Below are positions 1,161-42,779 of a stretch of 64,000 nucleotides of DNA, in pieces; the stretch's first letter is position 1; each line of letters starts with the position of its first letter. Under the pieces are notes generated by a model that had not been told where the DNA came from, ran no database searches, and saw only the letters and a list, made by a program, of their open reading frames with translations. Origin of the DNA: Marsupella aquatica. Taxonomy: Eukaryota > Plantae > Marchantiophyta. Where the stretch lies: NCBI GenBank assembly GCA_973895155.1, contig OZ316896.1, positions 6,314,166 through 6,378,165 of the forward strand. Reading direction: 5' to 3'. The position numbers were made by a program, and so were the translations under genes.

Positions 1161-2058
1161 AGTGAGTACCCCCTCTCGGTTGCGGGGGCATAACTCTCTG
1201 TGTATTTAACCAAATTGGCTATAATTGACCTCGTTGGAAAGAGGAGCTCAAGCCGCTTCCAACGCTGCTATCCACGCAGCAAATGGTTGAATTAAGAAAT
1301 CGGGAGAGGAGGTGCAAGCTCGCGAAAACCATGGAGGAGGGCCAAATCCGAAGTACATAGCCAATTCGAGACAGAAATAAAGTTGCGAGTTAGGGTTCAG
1401 TAGTTAGAGATAGTGGCGGCTCTATTAGGGCTGGGATGGGGCTCCAGCAGCATAGTATCCACCCATTTGGGCTCAGTATGAGAGTATATAGAGCAGCCTC
1501 CCGGTAGAGGCAAGGGGGGGGGGGACTTCAGTTGTGTGATCTCACTTAGACTGAGCAGCAGGGAGGAGCTCTGTGCAAGCAAGGCTGGACTTGGACGCTG
1601 CGTGTTGGGGAGAGCTTGGTTGTGCTATTACTTAGGGAGTAATCAGCCAAGCTTCACAGCTGCAACGGGTTGCTAGGTTTGCGAGCTGGATTGTGGCTCT
1701 TTCTAGTGGGCAGCACAACTGGGTTCTTTTCCCCCGATACAGAGCCTTGGTGATAGGTGATGTATTGGTGATTGTAAACTGTGGAGAGGATTTCAATGTG
1801 ATTTGTGGTGAGCACATTAGGGAGGCTGAGACACTGATTGAGGGGCAGCAGGAGGAGCATTTATAGTTCAGTCTGGCAAGGCTACGGGATCCATGGGGAG
1901 TCCCGGCCTTTGTCTGGTAGAGAGCACTAAGGGATTTATGGCCAGAGCTGAGCTTGCACGGCAAGCGTGAGGCCGGGCCTCATTGCAGTCTGGGATAGAG
2001 AGGAGCAATCTCATCAGTTATTAGTGACTGATATCAGTCACCGACATTTTTTTGGACA

Positions 2059-2807
2059 ATCTCGGAGACCTCTCCGAGATTGACCCCTTTTTTTTAATCA
2101 ATCTTGGAGGCATCTCCGAGATTGACGTCCTATTTTGTGTCAATCTCGGAGGCCTCTCCGAGATTGGTCACCAAAGTCTCCAACAATTGTTACAATCTCG
2201 GAGAGCCTCTCCGAGATGGGATCAACACTGGGTTTGAATCTTGGAGAGCCTCTCCGAGATTGCCAAAAACACTGGGTTTAAATCTCGGAGAGCGTCTCCG
2301 AGATGGGATCAACATCACTTGGAATCTCAGAGAGCGTCTCCGAGATGGGATCAACATCACTTGGAATGTCGGAGAGCCTCTCCGAGAACATCACTTGGAA
2401 TGTCGGAGAGCCTCTCCGAGAACATCACTTGGAATGTTGAAGAGCCTCTTCGAGATGGGATCAACATCACTTGGAATCTCGGAGAGCCTCTCCGAGATGG
2501 GATCAACGTCACTTGGAATCTCGGAGAGCCTCTCCGAGATGGGATCAACGTCACTTGGAATCTCGGAGAGCCTCTCCGAGATGGGATCAACATCACTTGG
2601 AATCTCGGAGAGCCTCTCCGAGATGGGATCAACTTCACTTGAAATCTCGGAGAGCCTCTCCGAGATGGAATCAACGTCACTTGGAATCTCGGAGAGCCTC
2701 TCCGAGATGGGATCAACACTGGGTTGGAATCTCGGAGAGCCTCTCCGAGATGGGATCAACCTCACTTGGAATCTCGGAGAGCCTCTCCGAGATGGGATCA
2801 ACATCAT
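2059..2807. repeat. Left subterminal array of the 22/23-bp palindrome, mostly 42-bp period
   Basis: Unit TTGGAATCTCGGAGAGCCTCTCCGAGATGGGATCAACATCAC; about 19 palindrome copies by eye. Confidence 0.95.
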
Positions 2808-2892
2808 TTGAAATCTTGAACATTTATTATTATGAAAGGATACAAAAGTGTATCGTTCTACCCACTAAACCCGAAACATCTTTGACATGCAT

Positions 2893-5800
2893 TCACCCTG
2901 AGCCTGCTACATTTGACACCAATTTACGAACCTCGCTAAGTGTCAAGATTGGCTGGTGGATCTCTTGGTCGCTCTCTAGATCTCGTCCACAAATATTTTT
3001 ATAGCACCAATACAAGTGTTTGCAAGGAAAGAAGTATCTTCCAGTATCTCTCATGATGAAATCTTGACAAGAGCAAGTTGGGAACACACATATCTGTACA
3101 CAATGGGCTGAATTACGGTCACGATGAGTGTTGGAAAGTACCACTCGTAAGCCAGTTGCATTCCCTTTTTCAATTCGAGTCATGGAAGTGAACCTCATCA
3201 ACTCGGATTTGGCACTCTCAATACGTTTCTTTGCATCTGCCGTCACAACCAATCTCCTTCGCCGTAAGCGACCATTGCGCCGGCTCAGCCTGACATCAGG
3301 CTTCAATGGATCCAACTGCTCAGGGTAACTATTCAAGTCCACAATTACATCGCCAGGACTCACCATTGAATCACCAGGAATGATGGTCTGTACCACATTC
3401 AATTCATTCACATGGAGAAAATCAACTTTATCTTGTGTTAGATAGGTTCCTCGAGCAACTAGGACCTTCTCCGGTAGTGGGGGCAGCCGCCCAGTAACAT
3501 ATGCCATGGAGGATTTCTGGCAACACTTGTTGTTTGGGCAAAACCAAAACTTTTGTGGAATGTTTGGATCCTTGTAACTGCTCCCAGCCAATAAGCACAA
3601 TCCTACCACACCCAACGTTGCATGACAAAACCCCACCTCCTTGATGTATAGACCGCATGCTGGACATTCTGTGCCTTTGAAGGCACCTCTACAAGCGGGA
3701 CCACTTCCATGGCGACTGATGCGAGACAAAAACAACATTCCTGGCATCACATTGCTCTCCTGAACTTGTCTTTGTTGGCCTCTATTATGCAAAGGTTCAG
3801 CAAACCGCATTGGTGGATAAACAGGGGGTGACCTTGGTATTGACCTTGTTGGGGTTGGAGGAGGTGGAACACGTGTTGCCCTTGTTGGGGGCGGAGGAGG
3901 CACTCGAGTTGACCTCCTTGGGGTTGATGGTGGAGGGACACGTGCTGACCTTGTCGCACGCTGTACTGGGCTCTCCAAAATCACCACATCTGATCCACCA
4001 GAGCCTGTAGGAGAGTCTGACGAGGTTGACAAGTCGACCACGTCAAGAATGGTACTTTTCAAGTTTGCATCTTGGCTTGAAATCCCCTTGAACTTCCGCT
4101 TTTTAGGTCGCGTTACTAGAATGACATCATCGCGATGGGAGTCTTCTACTGCAATAGCATCAGCTGGAACCTTGCCTCGCGCCGACATTCGTTGAGTTTC
4201 ATAGTCACCAGGAATTGGGTCCCCCGAAGCATATTCAACCATCTCCGGTTGAGTCATCACCGTATTTAACTTTGGGAAGAAACTCTTAACATTCCCAACC
4301 ATCCTGGCATCTCGGAGACGAAGTTCAAAGAGGCTTGGGCCGCGGCCCTTCCTCCCGTGGGTCGTGTAGTTCACAAAGACACCAATTTGATTTGATGCAC
4401 GGGTTGCATCCGTTATACAAGATTGCACTATCCCAATCTTTGTTGTGGAAGACCATCGGCCCATCACGGCATGCACGGATTCTGCCCCGCTATGGTTCAG
4501 CATCAATGTAGACTTAGTTCTGTCCATGTCCTACACAAAAATCAAAGAAAAGAGTATTACCAAAAAATGTACATGGGTCATCTTGTACATCTGCAACATG
4601 TCCAACGGGGTCTATCCTGGAGAGGCTCTCCAAGATGACCAGTGTTTCATCTCGGAGAGCCTCTCTAAGATGAACCGTGTTACAAAATAAAAGTTGGCTC
4701 TCTAACATGTCTTCCGAGTCGCCCATTTATTTCATCTGGGAGAGGCTCTCCGAGATGACCCACCTCTTCCATCTCGGAGAGCCTCTCCCAGATGACCCAC
4801 CTCTTTCATCTTGGAGAGCCTCTCCGAGATAACCCATATGTTCCATCTCGGAGAGCCTCTCCAAGATGACCCATATGTTCCATCTTGGAGAGCCTCTTCG
4901 AGATGACCCATATGTTTCATCTCGGAGAGCCTCTCCGAGATGACCCACGTCTTCCATCTCAGAGATTACCCATATGTTCCATCTCGAAGAGGCTCTCCGA
5001 GATAGAATATTACTAAGAATTCATAGACTTACCAGCCGAATAAAGTTTCCCCACTGGGAGAACCGCACAATCCACCACGAAAGCCATGTCTCCAGTGACT
5101 TGGTTTTTCCTTTGATTGCATTCCCATTTTTCCACCAATCCTTCATCTTCTCAAAAGTCCGAAATGCAAGAATCACATTGGCAGCGTCCCTCAATGAATC
5201 CAGAAGCTCCTTATGCTCAACTGCTTTGCCTGGAAGAATGCATTTCTTTGTCATCTTCTCCACTGATTGCGCCCAATGAAATGCATCAGATCGCTCCTTT
5301 TGAGAATTAACTCTTCCATCCCAGAATGTGTTTTGAACTGCATTCCACCCAACTGCAGCATTATCGGCAATGAACCCACAAAACGTAACATTGTCAAGCC
5401 CATTTGCCTTACACACTCGCTTCATGACCTTCCATGCAGTTTGTAGTGCAGCAGTATCTTCCGAAACTAGCTCGCATATAAAAATTGTGCAGAGACCTCT
5501 GTATAGGTGGTCGTATACATGAGCTGACATTGTGCACCATTGCTTCTCAGTCATCCGATGCATGACATCAAACATCACCCATGAGTCTTGTAGATCTCCA
5601 CCAGGCTGCATCCTTTGAATGAGATCGATTCCAGACCCTGGACCCTTTACAGTCATCTTGAAAATGTGTGGGCGCTCATTTGTATCTAGCTTCTGGTTTG
5701 GAAATAGAGTGCTCTGGACAAATGAAAACACTGTTTCTTTTTGAAGATCAAGGATGACTTGGAGGTCGGATGAGGCATGGGTATACTTGCGTATGCTCTG

Positions 5801-6943
5801 TATCATAGATCTTACAACTGATCGATCTGATAGGATCGCTAATGTTTCATTCAGATCCCGTGCTTCCTCAAATGTGACAATCCCAGCAACCTTGTCATCA
5901 AAAATATCCCTTAGAGCTTTAATTGTGTCACTCTTGATCACAGACGGCATTGCATGAGGATTCTTCTTCAATTTCTCCTCCATCAACTTATGTAAGAAAG
6001 CTTTTCGATCTTTCTTGAGAACAAATTTGGCCGGATGTGAGTGACTCCCAACATGCATAGCAACACGTGTCATGTGCTTGTAAATATAATGGTCATGAGA
6101 GGTCAGAGTTATGTAGAACATTTCGGCTGGACACTTGGCTATACACTTAGGAGGCCGATCACAAAAGGCGCAAATCACACTCTCGGCTGGAACTAGTCGC
6201 CCAACAAGAAATGGAACCTCATTTCTCCCACCCCTATCTCGCTGCCATTCTGTGCAATTGCGCTCATTCTTACTTGTAAAAGCCGGACAATCTGAATGTG
6301 GACATTGCAAAGAGCCCAGGTATCTCACATTCCCAATCTTATACTTGAAGCCTCCCTTGTTCAGGTTGGGTCCAATTTGGGCCCCTGTCTCGATGAGCTT
6401 GCTCCACAAGTAGCAGTCATTTCTCCGCTCCATACCCAAGAAGAAGGCACCCTTTGTGTACATTCCTGTGAATGGGGGGAGCTCAAAAATGCAATCCCCA
6501 TCATACCATTCCGGCAGAGTCATGACTCGTTGTGGATAATGCACTCTAAGAATGGAATGGGCAGCCTTTACACATCGCGAAGTGCCTTTCCCTTTCAGCA
6601 TTGCAGCAACAACACTTTCAAGAAATTCGGCTTGCTCTACCTCTGCCGGCCACTCTGAAATCTCTCCAGTTTGAGATTGCAAACCAACTTCAGTAAGAGG
6701 AACAGAGTACACCCTCTGCTGAAGGACGTATGAAACTTCACTTTTCAGATGCCATATCCTTTCCTCTCCACTCTCCTCTGAGTCTGCCTCAATCAATGGT
6801 AAGACATCGTCGGCCTCAAAGAGTGCCCACTCCCCAATCTCAACATCGAACCGACGAGCTAATTCGTTGTCTGGTGTATGCCGAACAACACCATCAGTCG
6901 CTAGCACAACAACGTCTCCATTGTCTGGAAACGTGATCCTCAC
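2893..6943 (-). CDS. MULE-family DDE transposase with N-terminal WRKY/GCM-like Zn finger and C-terminal SWIM domain; exons >=6943-5033 and 4530-2893 (~1180 aa, true start uncertain)
   Basis: Motifs WVMFDVMHR (D1), FIADNAA (D2), ERSDAFHWAQS (CxxH position), GAESVHA (E), CSC-x15-CKH (SWIM), and an N-terminal CxxxxC...CxxC...C...HxH. Phase-0 intron 5032-4531 (CTG|GTAAGT ... TTGTGTAG|GAC) joins ORFs 5021-6943 and 2893-4527. The frame continues upstream past a TGA at 6977-6979. Confidence 0.85.
4612..5003. repeat. Palindrome array in the transposase intron, 37-bp period
   Basis: Unit CCATCTCGGAGAGCCTCTCCGAGATGACCCATATGTT; palindrome starts at 4771, 4808, 4845; about 10 copies. Confidence 0.9.
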
Positions 6944-7154
6944 ACGAATATTGTTGAATATGTCAAGATTGTTTTGTCAGAGTACCTTATCGCCCAGACT
7001 GAGCGTAAAAATTGTTACAATATTCTTCCCTCGTTGAATATGTAAGAATCCTTCTTGACAACGTACCCTTGTGAGCGTGAAAACTGTTATTGACAGTGAC
7101 TAAGTTTATTGGACCAACATCCAAGAACCTTTGACAGCAAGTTTAGGGTGTTCA

Positions 7155-8055
7155 TTAGGCTCTCTCAGATGCCATCTGGAAGCCTCGACCCATGTTAGAG
7201 AGGCTCTCCGAGATTAGATCTTGCACCGGATCTCACCAAGTTTCATCTTGGAGAGGCTCTCCAACATGCCATCTTGCGCAGGTATGAGGCCTCGACCCAT
7301 CTTGGAGAGGCTCTCCGAGATTAGATCTTGCACCGGATCTCACCAAGTTTCATCTTGGAGAGGCTCTCCGACATGCCATCTTGCGCAGGTATGAGGCCTC
7401 GACCCATCTTGGAGAGGCTCTCCAAGATTAGATCTTGCACCGGATCTCACCAAGTTTCATCTTGGAGAGGCTCTCCGACATGCCATCTTGCGTAGGTATG
7501 AGGCCTCGACCCATCTTGGAGAGGCTCTCCGAGATTAGATCTTGCACCGGATCTCACCAAGTTTCATCTTGGAGAGGCTCTCCGACATGCCATCTTGCGC
7601 AGGTATGAGGCCTCGACCCATCTTGGAGAGGCTCTCCAAGATTAGATCTTGCACCGGATCTCACCAAGTTTCATCTTGGAGAGGCTCTCCGACATGCCAT
7701 CTTGCGTAGGTATGAGGCCTCGACCCATCTTGGAGAGGCTCTCCGAGATTAGATCTTGCACCGGATCTCACCAAGTTTCATCTTGGAGAGGCTCTCCGAG
7801 ATGCCATCTTGTGGAGGTATGTAGCCTTGACCCATGTTGGAGAGGCTCTCCGAGATACCATCTTGCGCAGGTATGAAGGGTTTAGGGATGTTGGAGAGGC
7901 TCTCCGAGATGCCATCTTTAGGTGTGTAGCAAGGATTAGGCCCAATATTTGTCAGAGAGGCTCTCCAAAGTTATCACCAACCTGATATGTCATCTCGGAG
8001 AGCCTCTCCGAGGTCTGATCTTGTGTAATATTCAATTTTGGAGAGGCTCTGACAT
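7155..8055. repeat. Palindrome array upstream of the transposase, 107-bp higher-order repeat (53+54 bp)
   Basis: Alternating spacers TAGATCTTGCACCGGATCTCACCAAGTTTC and GCCATCTTGCGCAGGTATGAGGCCTCGACCC; central base mostly G; units at 7301, 7354, 7408. Confidence 0.9.
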
Positions 8056-8067
8056 GGGTCCTCAATG

Positions 8068-8680
8068 ACATGTCATCTCGGAGAGCCTCTCCGACTTACG
8101 TCCCCACTTTACATGTCATCTCGGAGAGCCTCTCCGACTTACGTCCCCACTTTACATGTCAACTCGGAGAGCCTCTCCGACTTAGTCCCCACTTTACATG
8201 TCATCTCGGAGAGCCTCTCCGACTTACGTCCCCACTTTACATGTCAACTCGGAGAGCCTCTCCGACTTATGTCCCCACTTTACATGTCATCTCGAAGAGC
8301 CTCTCCGACTTACGTCCCCACTTTACATGTCATCTCGGAGAGCCTCTCCGACTTACGTCCCCACTTTACATGTCATCTCGGAGAGCCTCTCCGACTTACG
8401 TCCCCACTTTACATGTCAACTCGGAGAGCCTCTCCCACTTACGTCCCTACTTTACATGTCATCTCGGAGAGCCTCTCCGACTTACGTCCCCACTTTACAT
8501 GTCAACTCGGAGAGCCTCTCCGACTTACGTCCCCACTTTACATGTCATCTCGGAGAGGCTCTCCGACTTACGTCCCTACTTTACATGTCATCTCGGAGAG
8601 CCTCTTCGACTTAAGTCCCCACTTTACATGTCAGAGTGGAGAGCTTATCTGACATGGGGGCGTGACATATCTCGGAGACA
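8068..8680. repeat. Palindrome array in the divergent intergenic region, 43-bp period
   Basis: Unit ACATGTCATCTCGGAGAGCCTCTCCGACTTACGTCCCCACTTT; about 13 copies. Confidence 0.95.
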
Positions 8681-9261
8681 ATCTGGAACTTGAGACTGGC
8701 TTGACATGTCGTGCAAGTACTGAATATTTTTTGGAATTAAATCCAGTCATTCAATGATCGTACTCATTAATACCAAGGAATGATAGGAAATCTTATCTGG
8801 TCTGGAATCAATCGTACCAAGGACATTATGGCGTGAAGGGGTAGTAATAATGAAAGCATCTGTACAGGTACTTCAGTGTTGCGACTCTGACATGAGTCAA
8901 ATCTAGGCATTCATCATTATCAGAGTATGACAACATATAAGCCAATAAACTGCTAACATGTCAACTTCCTCCCGTGGCCCCTACCACTTGTAATCAATGA
9001 GTGGTCCCATAGATCTCCTGTTGCTTGGATGGGACTCAACCTGCGTGACGGCGATAGTGAAGTCAGTTGTGATGCCCCTAGATCTTCCGTTGCCTAATAA
9101 TGATGATGACTACTTTGGTGAGTCCCAGCCGTCTCTCGCCTTTCCTCATTTGAAAGGCGAGCAATTGAGGCCAAGCGAGTGCGAGTGCGGATGCAATTTA
9201 CCTCATATTTCTTGGAGAGCGTAAGTTGCTTTGTGATCTTTCCCTCTCCGCGCTCTGTATG

Positions 9262-9692
9262 CTATGAGTTGTGTGCTGTGAGCTGTGGTGGTGCGAGTGC
9301 TGGAAGTAGTGCGATTGTGAGTGCAGTGCGATTGAGTGCGATTGTGAGTGCGAGTAGTTGTGCGGTGCGATTGAGTGCTATGCAAGTGGTGCGATTGAGC
9401 TTGCTGTGAGTGAGTTGTGGTGGTGCGAGTGCTGGAAGCAGTGCAATTGAGTGCGGTGAGTTGTGGCGGTCGAGTGCGAGTGTTGTGCGAGCGGTGTGAT
9501 TGAGTGTTGTGCCACTGCCAGTGATTGAGCTTGCTGTGACTAAGCTGTGGCGGTGCAAGTGCTGGAAGCGGTGCGATTGAGTGCGGTGAGCTGTGGCGGT
9601 GCAAGTGCGAGTGCTGTGCGAGCGGTGCGATTGAGCTTGTTGCGACTGAGCTGTGGGTGGTGCAAGTGTTGTGCAAGTTGTGCTCGTGCAAT
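9262..9692. repeat. GT-rich degenerate minisatellite (GTGCGATTGAGT / GTGCGAGT / GTGGCGGT), possibly within a 5' leader intron (9221-9696)
   Basis: Low-complexity repeats flanked by GTAAGT at 9221 and TTCAG ending at 9696, just upstream of the ATG at 9716. Confidence 0.7.
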
Positions 9693-10460
9693 TCAGTAGT
9701 TGGTGAGATTTGAAAATGACAGGGAAGAGGAAGCAACCCACTCCCTCTCCTTCATCGTCTGGTCGGCAGACCAGATCAAAGACAACAGAGAGCACCGCCA
9801 GTGGTCGGGAAACTCACACAGTGAAGAAGCTGGAGCCGAAGGTTCTGAACTTTGAAAATGTGTCTACTGAACGTCTGAACAAAGGTGCATTCGAAGGGAT
9901 TGTTGGGGAGTACTTGCTTTCATTTGGAGCTGAACCAAGTGGGAAGCCCAGAGAGCCACCTCGGATTCCACTATGTCGTTTGATGACAATGGAGGCAGTT
10001 TGGACTCTCCAACAGAGCTCCATTCTGAAGATGAAGAAGGACTTCGTGAAGAATGGGTATGTGGACAAGTTTTTGGAATTCCACATATCAGAGACCAATG
10101 CGCATAACGCCACCCACTCCATGTCTGAATTTTCCGCGGATTGGGACCCTCTATGGGAACAAGCTAACGCAAAATTTGAGATGGAGTGTGATGAGTACGA
10201 GGAGTTTCATGTTTTGAAGGGTAAGATGTTTTGGGTGTTTGATGGAAATCATCGCCTGAATGCATGTAGACAAGTGGCTGAAGAGTATCCTGACAAGCAG
10301 AAGTACCACCCTTGCATGAGATTCTCTCTTCTACAGCCTGGAAAACAAGGATTCAGGAAGATTGAGCAGGCAATGCACGGCCTCAACGCGTAAGTTTCCG
10401 CCCCCTTGGTTTTTGGTTGTTCTTGCATTTGTTGTTTTTTTGCACCCACATAGGCAATCC

Positions 10461-10666
10461 TATCTCGGAGAGGCTCTCCGAGATAGATACATACACACAT
10501 ACAATGTTTGGCTCTCAAAATGCTATCTCAGAGAGGCTCTCCGAGATAAACCTTCCCTTCTCGGAGAGCCTCTCCGAGATATCAATGCCTTCTTGGAGAG
10601 CGATGCCTTCTCAGAGAGCCTCTCCGAGATGTCCATGCCTTCTCGGAGAGCATCTCCAAGAGAGAT
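10461..10666. repeat. Palindrome cluster in intron 1 of the cargo gene
   Basis: About 6 copies of ATCTCGGAGAG(C/G)CTCTCCGAGAT or variants within intron 10390-10720. Confidence 0.9.
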
Positions 10667-13065
10667 GTAATTTTCAGGTATGAAGACTTTGACGCCAACA
10701 TTTGTCGCTTCTTTATGCAGGATAAGCGCAAACGTTGTGCAGACATCTTGGTTGACCGATGCAGACAGGGTGAAGAAGCTGTTGATGACACCTTTGGAGG
10801 AGTATCAGACATTGCTTCATCCGGATGGTTATGCTAGATTCTTAGCAGCAAGAAGCCATGGGCATGGAAAGACATGGTATAGCAAGTGCATGACAAAGGA
10901 TGCTGCTGTGTACATCATGTCGTGGAATAATATTGAAGACGGGAGGATTCGTCTTGCGAAGGAGATGGCAGCCGATGCTGCAATTGGCCATGCCTGGAGT
11001 TTGGATAAGTTCCAAAAGGAAACCGCACTCATGACGAGTGAAGCTTGTAGGTCTTGGGAGGGCAAAATGCAGAAGTTTGCTCAGATTGTCAATCTAGCAA
11101 ATGGAGAGGAGTTTCTAGAGATTGCCGAGGAGCTGCACCAGTTGCAGAGTTAACAAAAAGATCGGCCACAAGTGCAAGTGGGGTTGGATCGAGTTAAATT
11201 GTTTGCAAGTGCGGTGATGCCTGCTGAGTGTCGAAACAAGTTACTCCGCGTTCATTTCTCAACCGCGGAGGAGAAGAAGCGACACCACCATCCAGATGTA
11301 TATGGTGATTCAGCAGTGAGAGCTTGGTTGCTAGTGTGGTCAATGTGGTGTTACATTGCCCATGTTGGCAGTTTGATAATGTCAGAGTTTGCCGAGAGTG
11401 CATATGATTCTGGTGAGTGGCAGAACTTCAATGGAAGCAAAGACGAGTTTGTTGAGTTTCACAACAAGATGTACAAGCAATTTGTACAGACTCGGTCCTA
11501 TGAGGAGGGCAAGAAGATGTGGAATCCAGCAAAGCAAAGCAAAGATGTGTGGAGGAATCGTGCAAAGAGGTGTGTGGTCAGATATTTACTTCATCAGGAG
11601 AGCATTGGAGCCTCTACTTTCAAAGTGTTACCAAGTGCTCTGACTGCATGGATGACGGAGAAAGGCCCGCTGTCAATGTATCCAACAGATGGGCTGAAGC
11701 CATCAGCAAGAGTCTTTTCAGACTGGGAGAGACAAAATTGTCCATGGTTCATGGAGTTCAATGATTGGAATGAGTTCATTACGCCCGAAGAGAAGGAAGC
11801 TGCCAACCTCCTAAAGGAGGGGAAACTACCAGACAACCTTTTTGCACCTTCAAAGTTGGGAGATCTTGAGCTGTCGACAAAGGCTGCATTGGACTTGGAG
11901 GCCATTTTGCCTCTTGGAGAGCCAGAGTATGATGGGAAGAAGGTTCGGGGGAAGAAAGAAAAGGAATCAGAAGACACCACCTCAGAACAAGGCACTCCTG
12001 GTAAGGTTTACACCCTAGCTTGCATTGTACATCTGACATATGTTTGAGAGCCTCTCCGAGATAGTATCATTGTAAAATGATAACTAAACTCCTTACTTTG
12101 TTCTGCAGAAAAAAGTAAGGAAAAGTTTGGAACCCCAGGGTCTACCTCAAGCAAACGTCGTCCGATGGATGAGAAGATGGAGCCAAGAAAGACCGGGGAC
12201 AATGGAGAGGAGGATGAGAAAGTGGTGAGTGGGGACAATGGAGAGGAGGATGAGAAAGCGGCAAGTGGGGACAATGGAGAGGAGGATGGGATGGCCACCG
12301 GGGACAATGCAGAGGGCCATGAGGAGGAGGAGGAGCCTGACCTTTCAACCCCAAGCGGGACCCCGAGTGGGACCCCAAGCAAACCACAAATCTCTGGTAA
12401 GCCAACCAGTCGGCCAAAGAAGAAAGCCGACAAGAGGATAGACGAACCCACAAAGAAGCCAGTTTCAACAGAAGCCCCAGAAATTCCGGAGGATGATCTT
12501 TGCGAAATTCTTGGAGTACCTCGGCCCTCTCATGCTATTACATCTGCCCTGCGATTTTGCCATGCAAAAGAGCATATGACCTTACTAGAGTGTTCTTCTT
12601 GGCTGAAGGACAAATATCAGCCAACCACGGGAAAGTTGCCTCTCCCTCCATTCATGAGGGAATTCCGGGACTGGTGTAAGAAATTGAAGTTGGCTGGCTT
12701 GCGAAAACAAGGTTGGATAGTTGATGGTGTACCTAAGGGCCATGGTTGTGATATGATCTTTGTTCAGCTAGGGACAGATTATCGCATAGCGCAGGCTGAA
12801 AATAATGTTCCGGTGTGGAATAGATTTCGGCTCAGTGACCTAGAAGTGGCGACGACATTGGCAGACTCTCTACTCACAAACGACGGTTTCCTGTGCAGTG
12901 GTTCATTTGCCCACATAGGCTCAATCTTTGAGTACCTTCACATTGACTGGGCTGAGAAGTTGGATCACATTGACTCATTCACCATTTGGAATGACACACC
13001 TTGCTACATGGCGTCAAGCAAAAAAGTTGTAAGTTCACTTCAATTTTGGCATTTCAATAGAAGTC

Positions 13066-13682
13066 ATCTCGGAGAGGCTCTCCGAGATAGTTGAAAAATG
13101 TGTCCGCAATTACGATGTCGAACACCCTCTCCCTTATGGGTAACATTGATCTCGGAGAGGCTCTCTGAGATAGGTAGGATCCATCTCGGAGAGCCTCTCT
13201 GAGATAGGTAGCATGGATCTCAGAGAGCCTCTCTGAGATAGGTAGGATCCATCTTGGAGAGCCTCTCTGAGATAGATAGCATGGATCTCGGAGAGCCTCT
13301 CTGAGTTAGGTAGCATGGATCTCGGAGAGCCTCTCTGAGATAGGTAGGATCCATCTTGGAGAGCCTCTCTGAGATAGGTAGCATGGATCTCGGAGAGCCT
13401 CTCTGAGATAGGTAGGATCCATCGCGGAGAGCCTCTATGAGATAGGTAGCATGGATCTAGGAGAGCCTCTCTGAGATAGGTAGGATCTCGGAGAGCCTAT
13501 CTGAGATAGGTAGCATGGATCTCAGAGAGCCTCTCTAAGATAGGTAGGATCCATCTTGGAGAGCCTCTCTGAGATAGGTAGCATGGATCTCGGAGAGCCT
13601 CTCTGAGATAGGTAGGATCCATCTCGGAGAGCCTCTCTGAGATAGATAGCATGGATCTCGGAGAGCCTCTCTGAGATAGGTA
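13066..13682. repeat. Palindrome array in intron 3 of the cargo gene, 34-bp period with alternating spacers
   Basis: Unit ATCTCGGAGAGCCTCTCTGAGAT plus AGGTAGGATCC or AGGTAGCATGG; about 17 copies; right arm reads CTG instead of CCG in almost all. Confidence 0.95.
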
Positions 13683-14499
13683 GGATTTTTAGGGTTTAGA
13701 GAGGTAGGACCAATGTCGGATTAGTTTAGCAATTAGTGTTGCTAACAAGTGCGAATCTATTTTGCATGATGTGACAGGCTCAATATCTGCATTTGGATAT
13801 ATTCGCCATGAAGGGTACAGAGGTGACCCTCCCAAAGATACATATGAAGCCAATTACTGGTGATTTGTGCCCAGGAAAGAGCAATGCTCTATCCAATTTT
13901 ACAAAGGAAGATGATGCAGTGAGAGACGAATTGGCCGGAACCTTATCGCCTGCAACCTTGCAATGCATCATAGAGCACATCACCAGTCCCGGCGATATCA
14001 TATTTTCTTGGAATGTCCACTTTGGTGCTATCTACAAAGCTACCAATAATTGTGGGCAACTAGTATTTGGGATGGAAGCGCATGACTACTTTGGTGAGTC
14101 AGCAGCTTCGGTGGTGTCAAAACTCCTTTCAACACAGCAGGGCAATCAGACCAAGGCGGAGGGCGAGGAGAGTAAGAAGGAGGAGGCCAAGGAGACTAAG
14201 AAGCCTGAAGGGCGGAAGAAGCTTGTCCTTGAGTCTGATTCAGAGGAGGATGCCGCAGAAGGCAAGGGTGGGAATGCTCAGGATTGTGAGTAAACGTTGA
14301 ATCCAAGAACCCATTTGTTGTTAGTTTGCAATTTACATTGTGCCATGGTGAGGATAAATAAAAATGTGAAGTTCCACATTATTATGGTATTACCTTAAAC
14401 TGTCTACTTAACCAATAGGCAGTTCACTACAGGAACATCGAGTCCGAACAATGGCACACATCGGACAAGGACAAAGTCCATGAAGCATGGGAGGAAGCA

Positions 14500-15531
14500 T
14501 TGAAAACTTTCTCTCCAGAAAGATTTTGCCTTCCAACTTACGCAGAAGGGATTGTTGATTCACGCCCCTTCAAACGGCTCAAGGGTGTAGCTGAGAAGTA
14601 CACAAAGAGGCGAAAATCAAGATTTGTAGATGATAGAGCAGTAGAGGTAGACTACAATGAAAGTGAGAGTGTCAGCAGTGATAGTGATAAGATAGCTCAC
14701 CCTTCTTTTGTGACCTATAGCTCAGATGAAGATGATGCCTAATGCCATGCTGTTCAATCCTATGCAGCACGTGGTGGGAATACCCAGATACCTGGGTTAT
14801 TTGCTGAAGTAGTCTGCTCTCAAGACTTTTCCGACATAGTATCCACATGTCTATCCACAGAGCTCCCAGACGAGGAAGTACTATTCAACTTTGTAGATTA
14901 CAAGTTGACTAGGGCGTCAATGAGATGCTTGTCTGAAGGAAGAACAGGAGCTCAATGGCTACATTCAGATATCATCGATGCATATTTGGCCTTGTTGCAG
15001 TTTAGGGGGAGATCAAGAGGCTATCCAAAGTGTGCATTTTTCATCACAGCATTCTACATGTTGCTCTCAACGCCCGTATACTGTTTTGCCAATGTTGCTC
15101 GATGGACCAAAACAGAAAACATATTTGATTATGACAGGATATTGGTCCCTATCCACCAGGCAAACAGGGAGCATTGGGTGTTGGCAGTGATTGATTTAAC
15201 TGGAAAAGAGGTGTTGTTCCTAGATTCACTTTGGGAGAAATCAGGAAACTTTTGGGAGGCTCGAAATGAGTATCTCATGTATACTCTAACAAGGTATGTC
15301 GAGGATGAAGCAAGTCAAAGAGGCATGCCCTCACCAGATGCAAACAACTGGCCTAGAACTTTAGTGTCAGGCCTTCCATCACAAGAAGATAGTGTAAATT
15401 GTGGGGTATTTATCCTTAACTATGCAGAGCGCATAAGTCGAGATGCTCCTATGGATTTTGATGGCAGCTAGGTAGGAAACTTGCGAAAGAAGATTATTTA
15501 TGACCTGTGCACATATCAGATAACAGAATAA
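14500..15531 (+). pseudogene. Ulp1/SENP-family (peptidase C48) SUMO protease carried by the MULE; 5' end uncertain
   Basis: WLHSDIIDAYL, ILVPIHQANREHWVLAVID, FLDSL and QEDSVNCGVF give the H-D-C triad plus oxyanion Q. ORFs at 14500 and 14905 share a frame across TAA 14740-14742, and the frame continues past TAG 15469-15471 as VGNLRKKIIYDL to TAA at 15531. Confidence 0.9.
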
Positions 15532-15654
15532 AGTAGTGGCCAACAGGGGTTAGCTTTAGAGAAGGTAGCAATGATGAAGTGTTGCTGTGTACACATTATA
15601 ATATATATGAAAAGTGAATGTGATGTGTATCACTTGCAAATTTTTTGTATTTGT

Positions 15655-16037
15655 ATGTCGGAGAGGCTCTTTGAGATGGTCTTAGAAATGGAATGGGAAA
15701 GTCAATGATGGTTTGCAAAGTGACTTGGTATCTCGGAGAGGCTCTCCGAGATGGTCAACAAAAATACTTGGTATCTCGGAGAGGCTCTCCGAGATGGCAA
15801 TGGAGTGACTTGGTATGTCGGAGAGGCTCTCTGACATGGTGAGCAAACAAACTACCATGTCTCCAACATACTCCTGGAAGTGTGTTGGGATCTCGGAGAG
15901 CCTCTCCAAGATTGCCAAAAACAATTGTTGCCATCTCAGAGAGGTCTCCGAGATTGCCAAAAAAATGGTAGGGATCTCGGAGAGCTCTCCGAGATTGCCA
16001 AAAAAAACTGTCGCCATCTCGGAGAGGTCTCCGAGAT
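15655..16037. repeat. Right subterminal palindrome array
   Basis: About 9 copies; outermost ATCTCGGAGAGGTCTCCGAGAT (16016-16037) is the exact reverse complement of the outermost left copy (2059-2080). Confidence 0.9.
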
Positions 16038-17016
16038 TAGAGAAAAAAAAGGGGGGTGACTAATATCAGTGACTGATAACTGATGGATTACCTCCCCACT
16101 CTGGGATAGATCGTTGTTAGGCCTGGTATCAGCTTTGAAGTCGAGTCAACTGTGCATGCGTAACTTGACGTTCTGAATTGGAGGTGTGAGATCTGCATGT
16201 GCCCCCAAGAATGAAGTGCAGTGAAGGAGGTTGAGTTCAGGATTGAGTTTGCAAGGCAAGTACGGGATTGGTTTGAGTCCAATCTGCCGTTGCAATCTGG
16301 AGTGAGCCGGGCTCAGGTTCAGGATTGAGCTTGCATGGCAAGCATGGGGCTTGCAGGGCAAGCACGTCACAATCTGGAGGAGACAGCCTTCGGCCCTAGT
16401 GTTTGGATCAAGTGTTCTCAGTGAACTATTGTGCACATCTTTGAATCTAATTGATTTTTCCTCTCAAGCCTCATTTCTCTCATGGATGTGTGTGTGTGTG
16501 AGGCAATCTGAGTGTATGATGGGACTAGCAGCGCCACTGAGAGGTGTACATGGTGCATTGAAGCGGGCTGGGTGAGGACTGTCATAGCTCTGATTGCTGA
16601 GAGTGGAATGGCAGAGTGGTGGGGCAATGGCTTAGAAGTCCCTAAGCCGGGAATCAGTCAGGAGTCACTGGTTTATGGGTACATTCCGGCGGTGGAATAG
16701 AAACATACCTATGACAGTAAGCATACATATAGACCTATGCGCACCGTAGCGCTAGGCCCTGTGGGTACGGGCCCGATATGAAGACCCCTTCTCACCAGAA
16801 CTATCATGAGCGCAGATCTGATCCCCAACCTTGGTTCTTTGGGATTGAGCTTGGGTGATGTGTGATAGAGTCTTGCTATGATAGTCTGGTGTTAAGGGCA
16901 TAAATTTGTGTTTCCCGACCTTCACAACATCCCTTCGTGATCCTCAAGTACAAGGAGATGGTTTTGGCACCCATAGTGACATTTTTGGTGTTAAGACCCA
17001 TGTCAATCGCGTGACA

Positions 17017-23662: not shown

Positions 23663-24366
23663 TAGTAGCGGGGCCAATTTGGATACTTGAAAACCTACTG
23701 TACTTGTTCAGCTCAGAAATGTCTGTGCTGATCTCCATGTTTGGTATGGCTACTACCGCCCCTGTCAATTTTCTATGGAGCTCCAAAATTGAGGAAATCA
23801 CAATTTGAAATCTCTGTGCAATCATTCAAAGCATTCATGAAGCTTCCAATACTTTACGGGCGTGTTCAAAAATTTGGAGGGGGAAGAGGTCCCGATTTTG
23901 GAGTTGTCTACCTCGGGTTAACTGCAGTTAGCCGGAAACCCAGCCATTTGCAAACAGCGCACCGCTACCCCACTCATATTTGACTACCCGAGAAGATAAC
24001 AGCCTGGTTATACCCTGTTTAGGTGCGCCCGAGTGCATCGCGGACTGCCCGCAAGGCCGAAAAGAAATCTATATTTGACACGCTTTGTCCTTCTCAGCCC
24101 CGTGCGGGAACAACTTCCCGAACGGCGAGTTGGGACTTCCTTCGAAAGTTCGACTGCCACCACCCTCTTCCCGTTGAAGTGCAGTACCAGCCCCTTCCTC
24201 GAGAGGAGAGTAAAAGTCTGGCAATTGGGACTCCTTTGGATAACATAGCGAGAAGATCCTTTCAGGATTCAACCCCCTGATTGGGAGATTGCGGCAAACG
24301 CGACGTACCTTGATCGAGATCAACAACCTGGATATATTTTCCTTCGCAGAGAGGAACGAAGTAGTG

Positions 24367-27300
24367 ATGTTCTGTTTGAAAGTGCATATGCCAGATCAGT
24401 TCACGGAAGTAGAATTGATGCCTCGGTCCATACGCCCAGACACGATCACCGATGGAGCAGCGGAAGGTCGAGAGGCGAAGCAACCCAGGGATGTCGGGGA
24501 CACTAAAACCGTGTGTTTTTCTTCAGGAAATCCTAGGGTGGAGTCTACGCGAGGGGTTGTGCACCTGTTCCGGAATACATCCGCAGACCCAGGCTCCGCA
24601 GACGAACTGCCGGTAAATTCAAATGCTTATTTTGCAGGATTGGGTGGCATGTTGGCTCCGCGAAGAGTGTCTTTTAATGGGATTGTGAAGTCAGCTTCAT
24701 TCGTGCCATTCCTGAACAACGAGATGGCAAATCTAGTTATAGCTTCGCCTACTTGGGCATCACTTTCCCTTCCTGAAGCTTTATTGATTTCTTGTCTTAT
24801 GCTCCCTCTTCAATTCTCCATATATACCTGTGTGCCCTTTCTCTCCTCCGCTCCACGACGGAATATGTGGTCTCTGTAAATCATTTGTACTCTCCACCGT
24901 CAAGTCATCTACTGCTCTCCAGACTCTTGGGTGATTGCCAGTTTAGATGGTGCAGAATGACACTCGATCACATCGGCCTTGTAAGCGGCACGGAGAACCA
25001 CGTTCTATTTTGGTGTAGTTTCCATGAGTGGTTTTCACCTGTTGTCGATTGCAATTCAATGTTCGCCTCAGTCATTATCGCACTTTGGTCAGAATTCGGG
25101 TTTGTTTATATCATTAGTCCTGCAGTGAAGATCAGGGATCTTGTGTGGCAATCTACCGTTTTGGCTGCTTAACCTGCTTTAATAGTATCAACCGTTCGTA
25201 AACAGTGTTTATTGTCGGTCTCATGTCTCAATTGAGTCTTTGTGCGTTTCAAATTGATTAATTCTTGCGTTCTAGACCTAAGTTTTCCGATAGATTCATT
25301 CGCTTCCTTCATTTCATTGGTTTTATCCGTCCAAGGAAATATTTCAGAATTGGTATTATTAATAATGCTCCCATAGCATCTAAGGTTGTCCAGCAGAAGC
25401 CAGACGGAATTACACAGGCAACAAAGTATTAATGTACTGGAAAAATGTACTAGAAAAATTGTAATAGTATGATTAAACAGATTTAAATGTTTATTGAGAA
25501 TCCATTGAGTTGAGAAAATTAACCCGGGCATTGCTGATGAGTGTAAAGTATGGTCAATTAGTGGCGTCATAGAAAGATTGATCATGACCTTGTTTCATCA
25601 TGTTTTAACGTGAGCTCCAGATTGGGGTGTATGGTAGTGCTATGAATGTAAACAGCTGCATGGTCTGTTATTTTGTCCCAAGACACTCCCTGTTAACGAG
25701 GAGAGAATACGGTGACAGTTCTCGGTAAGTTTATGTGATAGTTTGGCTTTTTCATATTGTTTTTGAACAAAAAAGGCTATATCTCGCAGGCTGGCCGCAG
25801 TGAACACTTGTGCGTACTTGCGGTACCAAATCATTTGACGGGTGCAGATTTTTGCCAGTTTACGGGCTCGTTTCTTCATGACATTGAAGAGATGCGGATT
25901 GTCAGGTGTGTAACAGTCGGTCAAGTTTCATCTCTATTGAAAGCTAGAGGGAGAGGAATCCAGTACTAGTCGGGAATTTTTTTTTAAGTGCTTTGCTGGA
26001 TCTCGCTGTTTCTGTCCTCAGGAATGACGGTGCAATGGATCGCTACAGTGTCCTCATGAAGTTTGATAAACAGAGTTCTGCTGATGAGTTTTATCGACAT
26101 TATAATGGGAAGCCGTTCTCATCATTTGAGGTTAGCTTTTAGTGATGATTTGTAAACGAAAGGTTGATACCATTAGCATTAACAGCAAAATTATTTTCTA
26201 GCCGTATTCCTTATGCAGTCGTTGCAGTACAGAACAGGGGAGCAGTGGTCTGGAGTGAATTGGCCCAGTTAAGGACTGCTTGTTGTAACTTTCACCACTT
26301 GCTAAGATTGCTGTCTGGCTGAAGGAAAGGATTGGATGTTCTGTCCGTGACCTCTCACTGATCTTTATACGTTTGAAACATACATGAATATCCTTCTCCT
26401 GATGCTGGGCTGATTCGTTTATCTTCCTCTCTCCTTTTGGATTGCAGGCAGAGGTGTGTCATGTATTGTTTACTGCGGATGTTCAGTATACCGATTCTGG
26501 AGAAGAAGCATCATTGCCCCCTGCAGGGTTAACTGAACTTCCAACCTGTCCAGTTTGTCTAGGTGGGTTGTCTGAGAGTGACGTCACTTTGCGTGGTGTT
26601 GATGTTCATTTCAATGATTTAGGTCAGGAAGCATTACTTCCCTCTCAAGGATTGACAGAAAATATTGCAATGCCTCAGATATTTTGATAGGATGAAACCT
26701 TGCCTTTAAGCTCTTCTATTACTGATTTGACTTTCATTTGTGTCAATTGTTGATTTGATGCAGAAAGACTTGACCAGAACATCAGTGGAATTTTGACGAC
26801 TGTGTGCAACCACTCTTTTCATAGTTCTTGCATATCCAAATGGACGGACTCATCTTGTCCTGTAATGTTTACTCCCTCTTGAAGTTAATGTCGTTTCTTT
26901 TTGTGTGTGTGTTTTCTTTTTGGGCCGGAGTAGGTTGGGGAGGTTCTTAATGCTGATAAAACGAGCCCGATTTCTTAATTGCAAAATTTAGTTGATCACT
27001 CGAGGACTTTCCTTGTTGGGTTAGGCGGACCCATGAATTCAGTTCTTCCTTCATTCGTCAGAATTGTCGGTCAGAGGTATATCTTTTATAGTTAGGTCTG
27101 AGCATTGTTGATGGAAGTTATTTGCTTCAGGATCCGTGGTAAATGGCTAGTTATCATTTGCGACTTTGCAGGTGTGTCGATACTGTCAGCAACAATCAGA
27201 GAAATCTACTTGCTCAATCTGTGATTCTCCCGAGAATTTGTGGATCTGTGTGATCTGTGGCTTTGTTGGTTGTGGAAGGTCAGAGTTGTAATTCGAGTTG

Positions 27301-29537
27301 TCTGCTATCTGTTCATTTTACAACGTAATGTGTTTTATTAGAATCTACAGTCAATACAAACCCGTTCCAGGCATGTACGAGGTGGGATCGGAGCAATGTG
27401 TACGAGATTTCTACTTTGCAAGAAAGAGTAAGGTACCAATGGTGTTGACTTGCAGGACCTATCAGTAGACTATCATGTGGTACTGCTACTCTCAAATTTT
27501 GACTGGACAGTTTTCTGGGTAAACAGGTATCAAGAAGGTCATGCAATCAATCATTGGAAAGAGACGCAACATTGTTACTCACTTGAGCTCGAGACCCAAT
27601 GTGTGTGGGACTATGTTGGAGACAACTACGTACATCGCTTGATACAGTCAAAGACTGATGGAAAGCTAGTTGAGCTCCCAGCACCTTGTAGAGATAGCAG
27701 TGAAGACTGTAGTAGCTGTGAGGCTTACAGTCGAAGTGCTGAAGTGGACGAGGCACTCTATGATAGTAAACTAGAAGCAGTAAGTCAACTCTCAATCAAT
27801 TACCTTGGGTTGCAATACTTGCCGAATACGCGCATGATAAGTCTGCATATCCTGACTGGTATTACGAGTGGAGACAAAATGAGAATGAAAGCTCCTCCCT
27901 GCGGGAGCACAAAAGAGAATTGTGCTGGTTTACGGATATTAGACTTCTGGTTTTGTGCTGAGTCTGTTGTATACGGCACAAGTAATTCATCACTAGTCTG
28001 ACCTCTCAATCATATACAGATAGCAACGGAGTATGATCATCTTTTGACGACACAGCTCGAGAGCCAAAGACAGGTCACTTTTTTCTCGTCATCAATGCCT
28101 GGTCTTGCCGTTTGTGATTGCATGAGTTTTGGAAGCATAGGTGACCTGGTCTTGAAATATTTTGTTTGTCTCCGTGGCAAGATTGACTTTGCTGACGTTT
28201 ACTAATGTTGTAGCTTGTGTTTTCAGTATTATGAGGGTTTGCTTATAGATGCAGAAAAGCGAAGAGATGCTGCTATTTCCGTGGCTGTTGAGAAGGCAAT
28301 GAGTTCAAAGCTACGAACCCAACAGGATATGAAGAAGTTGCAGGAGGACAACTTGTTCTTGCAACAGGTCGGTACACAATTTGTGCGTTTAGCTTAATCT
28401 ATTAGTCCGGAGAGATTTCTGGTTGCGATTCATTTTCCATTTCTCAGTAGTGCCAATATCCATACAATTTCAATTATGTGCATAGACAGGCTTCTATCGT
28501 CAGACATATCCTAATGCAAGCGATTAACTCAAAGGGGTTTCTGAAAAATCACCCTAGTGTGAAACGTGTGGAACTGAATCTGGGTGGAGGGTTGACAGTT
28601 TACCTGTATCTCTTTATTGTCGATTTAGGTTTTACTTAAATGAACAATGTCTTGGCAGGTGAATCAATCTTTAGTTGATAATCAGCAAAGATGGCAGCAT
28701 AAATTGAATGAACAGGAAGAACGGTAAGTACATGCTTTGGATTGAATTCTGTATGTGTCAATTGTTGACCATGGAAGTAGGGTGAAAAGTTGGCTTTTCA
28801 TGTAGTTGAACCGTAGCGAGTGATCATGCACCGGTCGTCCACCGATTTTATTCGTTTTTATTATAGCTTGATCTCTTGAGTTCTAGCTGTAATTATTAAG
28901 CCCTTCAGAAAGAAGCTTCCTCGGGTTCAAAGGGCAGGAGCCTTTGGGTGCAGCTGAACTAGCTCTGCAATATCTGTCAATGGGATGTGATAACGACTCA
29001 CTATCTTTGCAGGGCAAAAGTGGCTTTGAAGCAACGAGATGAGCGAATTGCAGATCTTGAGGAACAGGTTCTCAACTAGTTCACTTTTGTTATTTGTTAT
29101 CTGTTTCACCGTTAAATTGCTTGTCGGCCTCACAACTAAGCTTAACTTCTAGTATGGAAAATTGTCCTGCAAGACTTGTGCGTGTTCCCACAACCTCTTT
29201 GAAGCTACTTCTACAAGAATTGCACCGAATGAAAGCTTTCTTTCTTGCTTACCCTAGCTACAAGAGTTTTATGAAATAGCAAGCTTTCTACCCCAGATAA
29301 GATCAAAGTTTACTATAGGGGGCACGGTAAATGACGTTTTGCGTCTGTCACAATATGATATCTTAAATCTAACTTCGATAAATTCAGGTCAGGGACTTCA
29401 TGGTGTACATTGAGGCTCAGAAGACTCTGGAGGCAAGTGAAGATGCAGCTGAACTTCGGGATGGCACTATTCTACCATTACCTGCAACTGCTAATCGGAG
29501 TGCAAGGTTTGCCAAAGTTGGACGAAAAAAACGATAG
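24367..29537 (+). CDS. BRIZ: BRAP2 RING ZnF-UBP domain E3 ubiquitin ligase (BRIZ family), 502 aa; exons 24367-24612, 25790-25905, 26022-26130, 26448-26562, 26764-26861, 27172-27278, 27527-27779, 28020-28073, 28227-28367, 28659-28723, 29013-29067, 29388-29537
   Basis: [40 protein letters not shown]...[23 protein letters not shown] (RING), [15 protein letters not shown]...HWKETQHCY...[24 protein letters not shown] (ZnF-UBP), C-terminal coiled coil. Eleven GT-AG introns give a 1509-nt frame. Confidence 0.93.
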
Positions 29538-42643: not shown

Positions 42644-42779
42644 ATAGAGATTCTGAGATAGAAACTTTTGGTTGACAGAAGGGGGCAGGAGTTGAGAGGA
42701 GATGAGTGGCTAACCGTCACGTTGGGAAATGGAGGAGGGTTTGGCAGCTGGGCTGTTTCATCTGGCCGGTTTGTTGCTA

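Follow-up and report, generated by a model that had tools for sequence, protein, structure and literature searches.

A 64-kb stretch of the genome of the liverwort Marsupella aquatica (contig OZ316896.1), referred to below as the window, contains a 14.1-kb transposon that is likely Mutator-like. The element carries a minus-strand transposase gene, a divergent plus-strand accessory gene, an Ulp1-type small ubiquitin-like modifier (SUMO) protease frame, and 86 copies of a 22/23-bp palindrome. The accessory protein is predicted to begin with a ParB/sulfiredoxin fold and to end with a methyltransferase-like domain. An earlier note on this DNA had proposed the combination as a new system. We analyzed the element, its relatives and its published counterparts, and we tentatively propose that the accessory protein recognizes the palindromes of its own element. 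Coordinates of the features are collected in Table 1.

The element and its palindromes

The element is flanked by two copies of an 11-bp direct repeat. Contigs from two of the four sequencing runs (X1 and X3) connected position 1988 to 16100 and represented the empty site. This joint omitted 14,111 bases, and 11 bases could be assigned to either side. Given these contigs and their 11 ambiguous bases, the insertion is real, the target-site duplication (TSD) is 9–11 bp long, and the end positions are accurate to about ±2 bp. The terminal inverted repeats (TIRs) are about 175 bp long, with 134 of 181 alignment columns identical between the two ends. Mutator elements and Mutator-like elements (MULEs) have TSDs of about 9–11 bp; the TSD length and the long TIRs found here both agree with this group. 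The call as Mutator-like, drawn from the TSD, the TIRs and candidate transposase motifs, is likely.

In three of the four runs, 29–30 of 30 element bins were covered, with many variant contigs, indicating a multi-copy family. Read depth over the bins was not taken as copy number. The window copy is decayed, with premature stops in the accessory gene (11151–11153) and in the Ulp1 frame (15469–15471, about 20 codons short of its end). The insertion target (1500–1997 and 16100–16600) is a far more abundant repeat, whose summed contig depth exceeded that of most element bins more than 10-fold in X1 and X3.

The 23-bp form of the palindrome is ATCTCGGAGAG-(C/G)-CTCTCCGAGAT, in which the central base is unpaired. 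With at most four mismatches allowed among the 20 arm positions, 80 palindromes of the 23-bp form and six of the 22-bp form were counted. They were spread over seven separate regions: the left end (18), the transposase intron (9), the intergenic DNA (28), accessory introns 1, 2 and 3 (5, 1 and 17, respectively), and the right end (8). All 86 were in noncoding DNA, and none was found in the eight coding segments or in accessory intron 4. At the same threshold, no palindrome was found in the other 49.9 kb of the window; relaxing it to six mismatches gave a single weak match there, and the exact core did not occur in these 49,898 bases. The chance expectation was 0.09 palindromes per simulated element, with a maximum of two in 100 simulations. 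The earlier note was thus borne out on the TSD-bounded element, on the presence of a transposase, an accessory gene and an Ulp1 frame within it, and on the confinement of the palindromes to its noncoding DNA; the arrays stood as well, and the count of about 90 was corrected to 86.

The 22-bp form was restricted to the TIRs, with three copies per TIR at a pitch of about 42 bp. Most copies of the palindrome derive from five or six recent tandem amplifications. The spacers between palindromes were unrelated and fell into 27 families at 70% identity. The centre of the palindrome (positions 8–12, 14, and 16) was invariant in all 80 copies of the 23-bp form. One explanation is that the arrays are neutral by-products, in which a hairpin-prone sub-repeat of the TIR was copied inward, amplified by slippage and tolerated only in noncoding DNA. 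The few amplifications behind most copies agree with this, and exons would purge such inserts anyway. However, the palindrome was kept while the spacers are unrelated, its centre did not vary, and its core is still found in the corresponding intron of relatives at 44–46% protein identity (see below). We consider neutrality very improbable.

Palindrome unit lengths (2059–16038) were near whole helical turns: 42/43, 53/54, 63, 75, and 32/33 bp, with 95 bp in the related locus L001. For 13 distinct unit lengths, which are not fully independent, the mean cosine at 10.5 bp was 0.57 (p ~0.001). The exceptions were two large arrays with 34-bp and 37-bp units. This phasing of most unit lengths, together with arrays that lie a short way in from each end and in the gap between the divergent genes, could mean that the accessory protein binds the palindromes for a mechanical or transcriptional job, such as bridging the ends, loading the transposase, or controlling the two divergent promoters from a distance as KorB does. 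KorB was also the best structural match of the accessory protein, and bacterial ParB-like clamps regulate transcription (10.1101/2025.10.10.680097). On the other hand, 32 of the 86 copies are intronic and distant from ends and promoters, the 34- and 37-bp arrays are out of phase, and the methyltransferase-derived domain and the SUMO protease would point to chromatin rather than synapsis. A role of this kind is possible though not probable.

The spliced transposase (6976–5030 and 4530–2893) was open across 1194 codons with no in-frame stop, and the frames of its relatives stop at the same intron position. A start codon for it could not be placed. Five relatives were found, 31–67% identical, one of them named from Riccia sorocarpa. 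Candidates for what we take to be the D, D, DxxH, E, and SWIM-like motifs appeared in the expected order. A Pfam scan of the transposase gave no MULE match, and SWIM matched only at E = 0.17. In other copies of the element, loose ends and joints were concentrated at 6951–7074, where the transposase frame has its 5′ end, so the start region of the window copy may be rearranged.

A distinct motif, GTGACTRAT, occurred four times in the window, always within 45 bp of the element tips (2016–2041 and 16056–16083). This motif is short, repeated, partly palindromic, and unrelated to the 22/23-bp site. The expected number in the window was 1.16, and two of 100 shuffles reached four; therefore, its placement counts for more than its number. 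The tip motif is likely a candidate transposase site that is separate from the palindrome.

Alternatively, the palindrome might be the transposase's own site, spread inward from the TIRs, with the ParB-like protein having some other target or no specific one. Each TIR contains three 22-bp copies, and the Mutator transposase AtMu1 alone binds and activates its own family (10.64898/2026.08.24.746577). Intron read-through in the relatives P0002 and P0004 also yields palindrome-compatible peptides, as judged by translation only; a peptide-footprint scan for the palindrome gave five matches in 187 proteins, of which P0004 alone was in intron read-through, and the scan is accordingly weak. However, AtMu1 binding is at TIRs (10.64898/2026.08.24.746577), whereas most copies here are internal, and the tips bear their own motif. 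In red algae, moreover, inverted-repeat arrays accompany ParB genes in a different transposon superfamily (10.1101/2025.02.11.637652). The palindrome is unlikely to be the transposase's site.

The accessory gene and its predicted domains

The accessory gene has five exons with GT–AG borders and consistent phase, giving 1233 codons; the splicing was deduced from sequence only. The stop at 14740–14742 is likely its natural end because Riccia proteins have tails similar to exon 5. Just 5′ of the gene, at 9260–9700, is a GT-rich, strand-skewed degenerate repeat with 39- and 130-bp periods, which is palindrome-free.

The model of exon 1 had a predicted local distance difference test (pLDDT) score of 94.1. 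The leading rows of a Foldseek search with exon 1 were sulfiredoxin, ParB (6sdk), Noc, SbnI, KorB, and PadC, and the probabilities for sulfiredoxin and ParB 6sdk were 0.98–1.00, with E values of 0.015–0.02. VIA, also run on exon 1, gave 12 chains with Z of at least 2. The best was KorB (Z 7.2, root-mean-square deviation (rmsd) 2.6, 89 aligned), and Z to KorB spanned 7.2–8.0 overall. We take all 12 chains to have the ParB fold, by their titles or families. Exon 1 is predicted to adopt the ParB/sulfiredoxin fold, as the earlier note had suggested.

The Box II motif GxxR, as defined elsewhere (10.1101/2025.10.10.680097), is present as DGNHR. Among 102 aligned rows, G was found in 90, N in 98, H in 92, and R in 80. 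The window copy departs at two conserved residues of the ParB domain, with W for R (kept in 86 of the 102 rows) and C for W (kept in 83). Pfam did not label the ParB exon as ParB, nor a single one of the 102 aligned members, and sequence searches of the PDB with three queries (A4, A5, and A6) gave no meaningful match.

In the model of the Riccia protein P0023, the helical region 3′ of the ParB fold matched ParB 6s6h (Z 5.2, rmsd 6.2, 126 aligned), KorB (Z 4.4, rmsd 4.0, 108 aligned), Spo0J (Z 4.3, rmsd 3.0, 94 aligned), and SopB (Z 4.1, rmsd 4.8, 112 aligned). The weight of this match likely lies in the four ParB-family domains at a ParB-typical position, not in the score. Similar to bacterial ParB/parS, KorB and Noc, the element would combine a ParB/sulfiredoxin fold with Box II, a likely ParB-type DNA-binding domain, and palindromic candidate sites. 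In contrast to the bacterial systems, it has large insertions and introns. No ParA ATPase was found among its long frames, and it is thus not a complete ParABS set. Depending on the protein, members of this fold bind cytidine (CTP), adenosine (ATP) or guanosine (GTP) triphosphate; of 28 members that were purified, 17 showed no binding, and the specificity is not predictable from sequence or models (10.1101/2025.10.10.680097).

The C-terminal domain of the accessory protein matched Riccia P0160 (E = 4.4e-12, within our own protein set). Riccia relatives matched PF01555 at E values of 9e-6 to 5e-5, just below its cut-off, phage DNA-methyltransferase PHROGs at E values down to 4e-9, and PF01555 Atlas clusters at 0.95. 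The exons of the window itself gave no match to PF01555, to the methyltransferase PHROGs or to the PF01555 Atlas clusters. DUF3723 was annotated in 31% of one Atlas cluster and was not taken up as an identity.

Canonical methyltransferases of this type carry a catalytic (D/N/S)PP(Y/F) motif and an FxGxG motif that binds S-adenosylmethionine (SAM). In Riccia relatives, and also in the window protein as judged by alignment, the catalytic motif precedes the SAM motif, which is the beta-class order. The window protein has lost both motifs: QLGTD is at the catalytic position, and the SAM position is degenerate. A SAM-type D-F/Y-x-G-G motif (FAGGWG-type) was kept in 20 of 26 Riccia rows. The catalytic position was covered by 18 of the 26, all of which read D-L/M-P/S-S/T-G/R, with an aromatic residue in none. 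One Adiantum protein had DVPFG there. Because the motifs are degenerate in the window copy and the catalytic aromatic residue is lost in the Riccia rows, we use the label pseudo-methyltransferase, which is well founded for the window copy and likely for the Riccia family. The degenerate domain claimed by the earlier note was confirmed to this extent.

Intact relatives might still be active N4C/N6A methyltransferases that are targeted by ParB and place a mark of bacterial type on the element that encodes them, the family of the window copy having lost the activity. The PF01555 and PHROG matches, the retained SAM-type motif and the Adiantum DVPFG are in line with this, and a related fusion in Ectocarpus is predicted to make N4-methylcytosine (4mC) or N6-methyladenine (6mA) (PMC12477816). 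Nevertheless, all 18 covering Riccia rows lack the catalytic aromatic residue, which Marchantia DN4MT1 has in its TSPPY, and the window protein lacks both motifs, so we regard active relatives as improbable. A kinship with Marchantia DN4MT1 was not adopted; that enzyme has TSPPY, and its description makes no mention of ParB (10.1101/2021.02.12.428880). Adenine methylases whose helix-turn-helix is called "ParB-type" (PMC4738411) were set aside as a different methylase group.

The Ulp1 frame continues in the frame of accessory exon 5 and carries what we take to be the His-Asp-Gln-Cys motifs of the family. The sequence at 14738–14768 may hold a branch point and a phase-1 3′ splice site, the latter ending at 14768. 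Splicing to 14768 from the exon 4 donor or from a donor inside exon 5 could possibly give an accessory–Ulp1 fusion like that of the KIU transposons described below.

Relatives and published counterparts

A HMMER search with accessory exon 1 found 181 relatives at E values up to 0.001, and many of them end at the same intron position. Ten were looked up by name: five were from Riccia sorocarpa, three were from Adiantum, and two were without a name. When longer relatives of the ParB exon were sought with a word-indexed search, none of the 386 candidates proved to be one. The spliced accessory protein aligned with Riccia P0027 over 1059 columns (27%). The R. sorocarpa genome has dozens of annotated genes of the ParB-methyltransferase family (P0157–P0187) on many chromosomes, some auto-named "trimethylguanosine synthase".

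One metagenome scan gave five related loci. The bacterial locus L005 matched over 37 residues and was left out of the intron count. The intron after the ParB exon was common to the other four loci, L001–L004. In L001 (44% protein identity), this intron contains two 23-bp sites with a TCGG-N9-CCGA-type core and a different centre; in L002 (46% protein identity), it contains one such site, again with a different centre. Only about 60 bases of the intron are present before L003 ends. A 50-row tree placed the window together with L001 and L002 in an eight-row clade (96/98) and L004 in a separate 25-row clade; only these two clades were used, as rows P0023, P0025, P0026, and P0086 were badly cut and on long branches. 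The intron cores of L001 and L002 are the only direct evidence of site and gene travelling together, and the sample is small. The pairing of gene and palindrome proposed in the earlier note was supported by the core retained in L001 and L002; L004 had no such site. Prokaryotic genomes gave no close relative, only one match of 37 residues, and among viral contigs neither the ParB domain nor the transposase had a relative, and no paired palindrome was seen.

Related architectures have been published in algae. Petroll et al. (10.1101/2025.02.11.637652) described red-algal Plavaka (EnSpm/CACTA) transposons with the accessory genes PAG2 and PAG3, of which PAG3 is a ParB-domain gene next to tandem inverted repeats, and with a PF01555 methylase gene in the element. 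They compared these with VANDALs and proposed self-binding, and homologous accessory genes also occur in Mutators of Chondrus crispus. Our element fits this description: it too is a DNA transposon of giant size whose accessory gene is ParB-like and includes a DNA-modifying-type domain, and inverted-repeat arrays are nearby. The two differ, as far as can be compared by description, in that Plavaka has ParB fused to a 2-oxoglutarate oxygenase and the methylase as a separate gene with a SET domain, whereas our element has a degenerate methylase as the fusion partner of ParB, includes Ulp1, has arrays throughout its termini and introns, and has its known relatives in land plants.

In the brown alga Ectocarpus, Sola1-1_Ec32 encodes a 1104-aa fusion of a ParB-like domain with an N4C/N6A methyltransferase, transcribed opposite the transposase, as in our element (PMC12477816; also compared by description only). 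The fusion was put forward as binding and modifying the transposon that encodes it, and such proteins as possibly a new class. That element belongs to the Sola superfamily and its methylase is predicted to be active, whereas ours is Mutator-like with a degenerate methylase. The available passages of that account describe no palindrome array, and its text contains no Ulp1 or SUMO term; both features are found here. ParB-N6N4-methyltransferase fusions are also a known architecture in bacteria and phages (10.1101/2025.10.10.680097).

The Arabidopsis VANDALs are another counterpart. VANC, whose anti-silencing activity has been demonstrated experimentally, targets short motifs tandemly amplified in introns, intergenic DNA and terminal DNA (PMC5735166). 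Ulp1 is known in Mutators and is fused to VANC in KIU VANDALs (PMC13317346). The likeness is in a Mutator-like element with an accessory gene, motifs amplified in noncoding DNA (86 of 86 here) and Ulp1 linked to the accessory gene, so the VANDAL-like layout seen by the earlier note was supported. The difference is that VANDALs, as described, lack TIRs and have 8–9-bp non-palindromic motifs, whereas TIRs, a dyad site of 22/23 bp and a predicted ParB-fold protein characterize the element here.

No land-plant transposon with a ParB-methyltransferase module was described among the matches listed, in a literature mostly without subscription journals. The earlier claim of a new, undescribed system was not upheld. 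In concept the element is not new, since ParB genes beside inverted-repeat arrays and a ParB-methyltransferase fusion, with the same self-binding hypothesis, are published in algae. What is new is likely the land-plant Mutator version, with its pseudo-methyltransferase, its Ulp1 frame and its exact site.

Proposed self-recognition of the element

The reading we favor, at somewhat less than an even chance, is that the window holds a decayed copy of a multi-copy Mutator-like transposon whose predicted ParB-fold accessory protein binds the 86 palindromes of its own element as a dimer and shields it from host silencing, as VANC does. The dimer would sit on the dyad site. Amplified in tandem in every large noncoding stretch, this site would, like the VANC motifs, single out the family to be protected or activated, and the transposase would act on the separate tip motif, likely not on the palindrome. 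Palindromes in seven regions, with unrelated spacers and in no exon, give the layout reported for VANC targets (PMC5735166). The inverted-repeat arrays that accompany a ParB gene in another superfamily suggest that arrays follow the ParB gene, not the transposase type (10.1101/2025.02.11.637652).

Several results weigh against this self-recognition. The 22-bp form lies inside the TIRs, where a transposase binds, and AtMu1 alone not only binds and activates but also hypomethylates its own family (10.64898/2026.08.24.746577). Many palindrome copies came from a few tandem amplifications. The palindrome core was found in only two of the four intron-bearing related loci; the intron of L004, which is in another clade, had no such site. 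All related loci are shorter than 2 kb, and cargo, arrays and transposase were never found together outside the window family. Foldseek gave no match at E 0.001 or better, and the Z scores of 4–5 for the P0023 DNA-binding domain are at noise level, as unrelated helical proteins score alike. The CpG observed/expected ratio was 0.36–0.58 in the element's exons and 0.59 outside the element. CpG depletion in the exons was at least equal to that outside; therefore, the element did not escape methylation decay and had no lasting protection.

A further version of self-recognition would have a nucleotide-gated ParB sliding clamp at work in a land-plant nucleus. After loading at its own helically phased palindromes, it would spread over the element, bearing a shield derived from a methyltransferase and, in an alternatively spliced form, a SUMO protease. 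Sequence-specific anti-silencing would then have been invented a second time, from bacterial parts, and site and protein would diverge together across subfamilies. We find this version doubtful, and the clamp is the weakest step of the self-recognition reading. If true, it would place a bacterial-type DNA clamp on eukaryotic chromatin and might provide a tool for locus-specific de-silencing.

Experimental proof of self-recognition or self-protection by transposons is confined to a few systems in Arabidopsis and maize, and a self-protection role of ParB-type accessory proteins in algae is so far a proposal in the published accounts. The family described here offers an exact 23-bp site, subfamilies with differing site centres, and annotated liverwort relatives, with which binding, nucleotide gating and anti-silencing are testable.

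Table 1. Positions of the element's features in the window
Feature	Position	Strand	Remarks
Left direct repeat copy (TSD, 9–11 bp)	1989–1999		Sequence; empty-site joint
Left TIR, ~175 bp	1998–2172	+	GTGACTRAT twice, then three 22-bp palindromes at 2059, 2101, 2143 (42-bp pitch)
Left subterminal array	2195–2793		15 copies of 23-bp palindrome, mostly 42-bp units
Transposase exon 2	2893–4530	−	Putative catalytic Glu region, Pro-rich linker, C-terminal SWIM-like finger
Transposase intron	4531–5029	−	9 palindromes, 37-bp units
Transposase exon 1	5030–6976	−	Zn-finger region, two putative catalytic Asp, DxxH motif
Two intergenic arrays between the divergent genes	7192–8612		28 palindromes, 53/54-bp and 43-bp units
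Accessory exon 1, predicted ParB/sulfiredoxin-fold domain, DGNHR Box II	9716–10389	+	Model, structure search, alignment
Accessory intron 1	10390–10720	+	5 palindromes; position conserved in L001–L004; palindrome core in L001, L002
Accessory exon 2, helical and with insertions; likely a ParB-type DNA-binding domain	10721–12000	+	Premature stop
Accessory intron 2	12001–12108	+	One palindrome
Accessory exon 3, acidic linker and first half of methyltransferase-like domain	12109–13028	+	Catalytic-motif position QLGTD
Accessory intron 3	13029–13777	+	17 palindromes, 34-bp units
Accessory exon 4, second half of methyltransferase-like domain	13778–14285	+	SAM-motif position degenerate
Accessory exon 5, Riccia-like tail	14423–14742	+	Acceptor inferred from phase
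Ulp1/C48 SUMO-protease frame	14743–15531	+	PF02902, E = 4.9e-24; in frame of accessory exon 5
Right subterminal cluster	15655–15912		5 copies of 23-bp palindrome
Right TIR	15922–16099	−	Three 22-bp palindromes at 15933, 15974, 16016; tip motif twice
Right direct repeat copy	16100–16110		Sequence; empty-site joint

Elsewhere in the window, exon fragments of a host gene were found at 24244–28001; from its translation, we take this gene to resemble a BRCA1-associated (BRAP2-type) ubiquitin ligase. Broken retrotransposon frames at 33873–38078 and 63255–63860 are presumably of the Ty3/gypsy type (reverse transcriptase, integrase, chromodomain-like). A further fragment at 42777–43466 is presumably like a long interspersed nuclear element (LINE).

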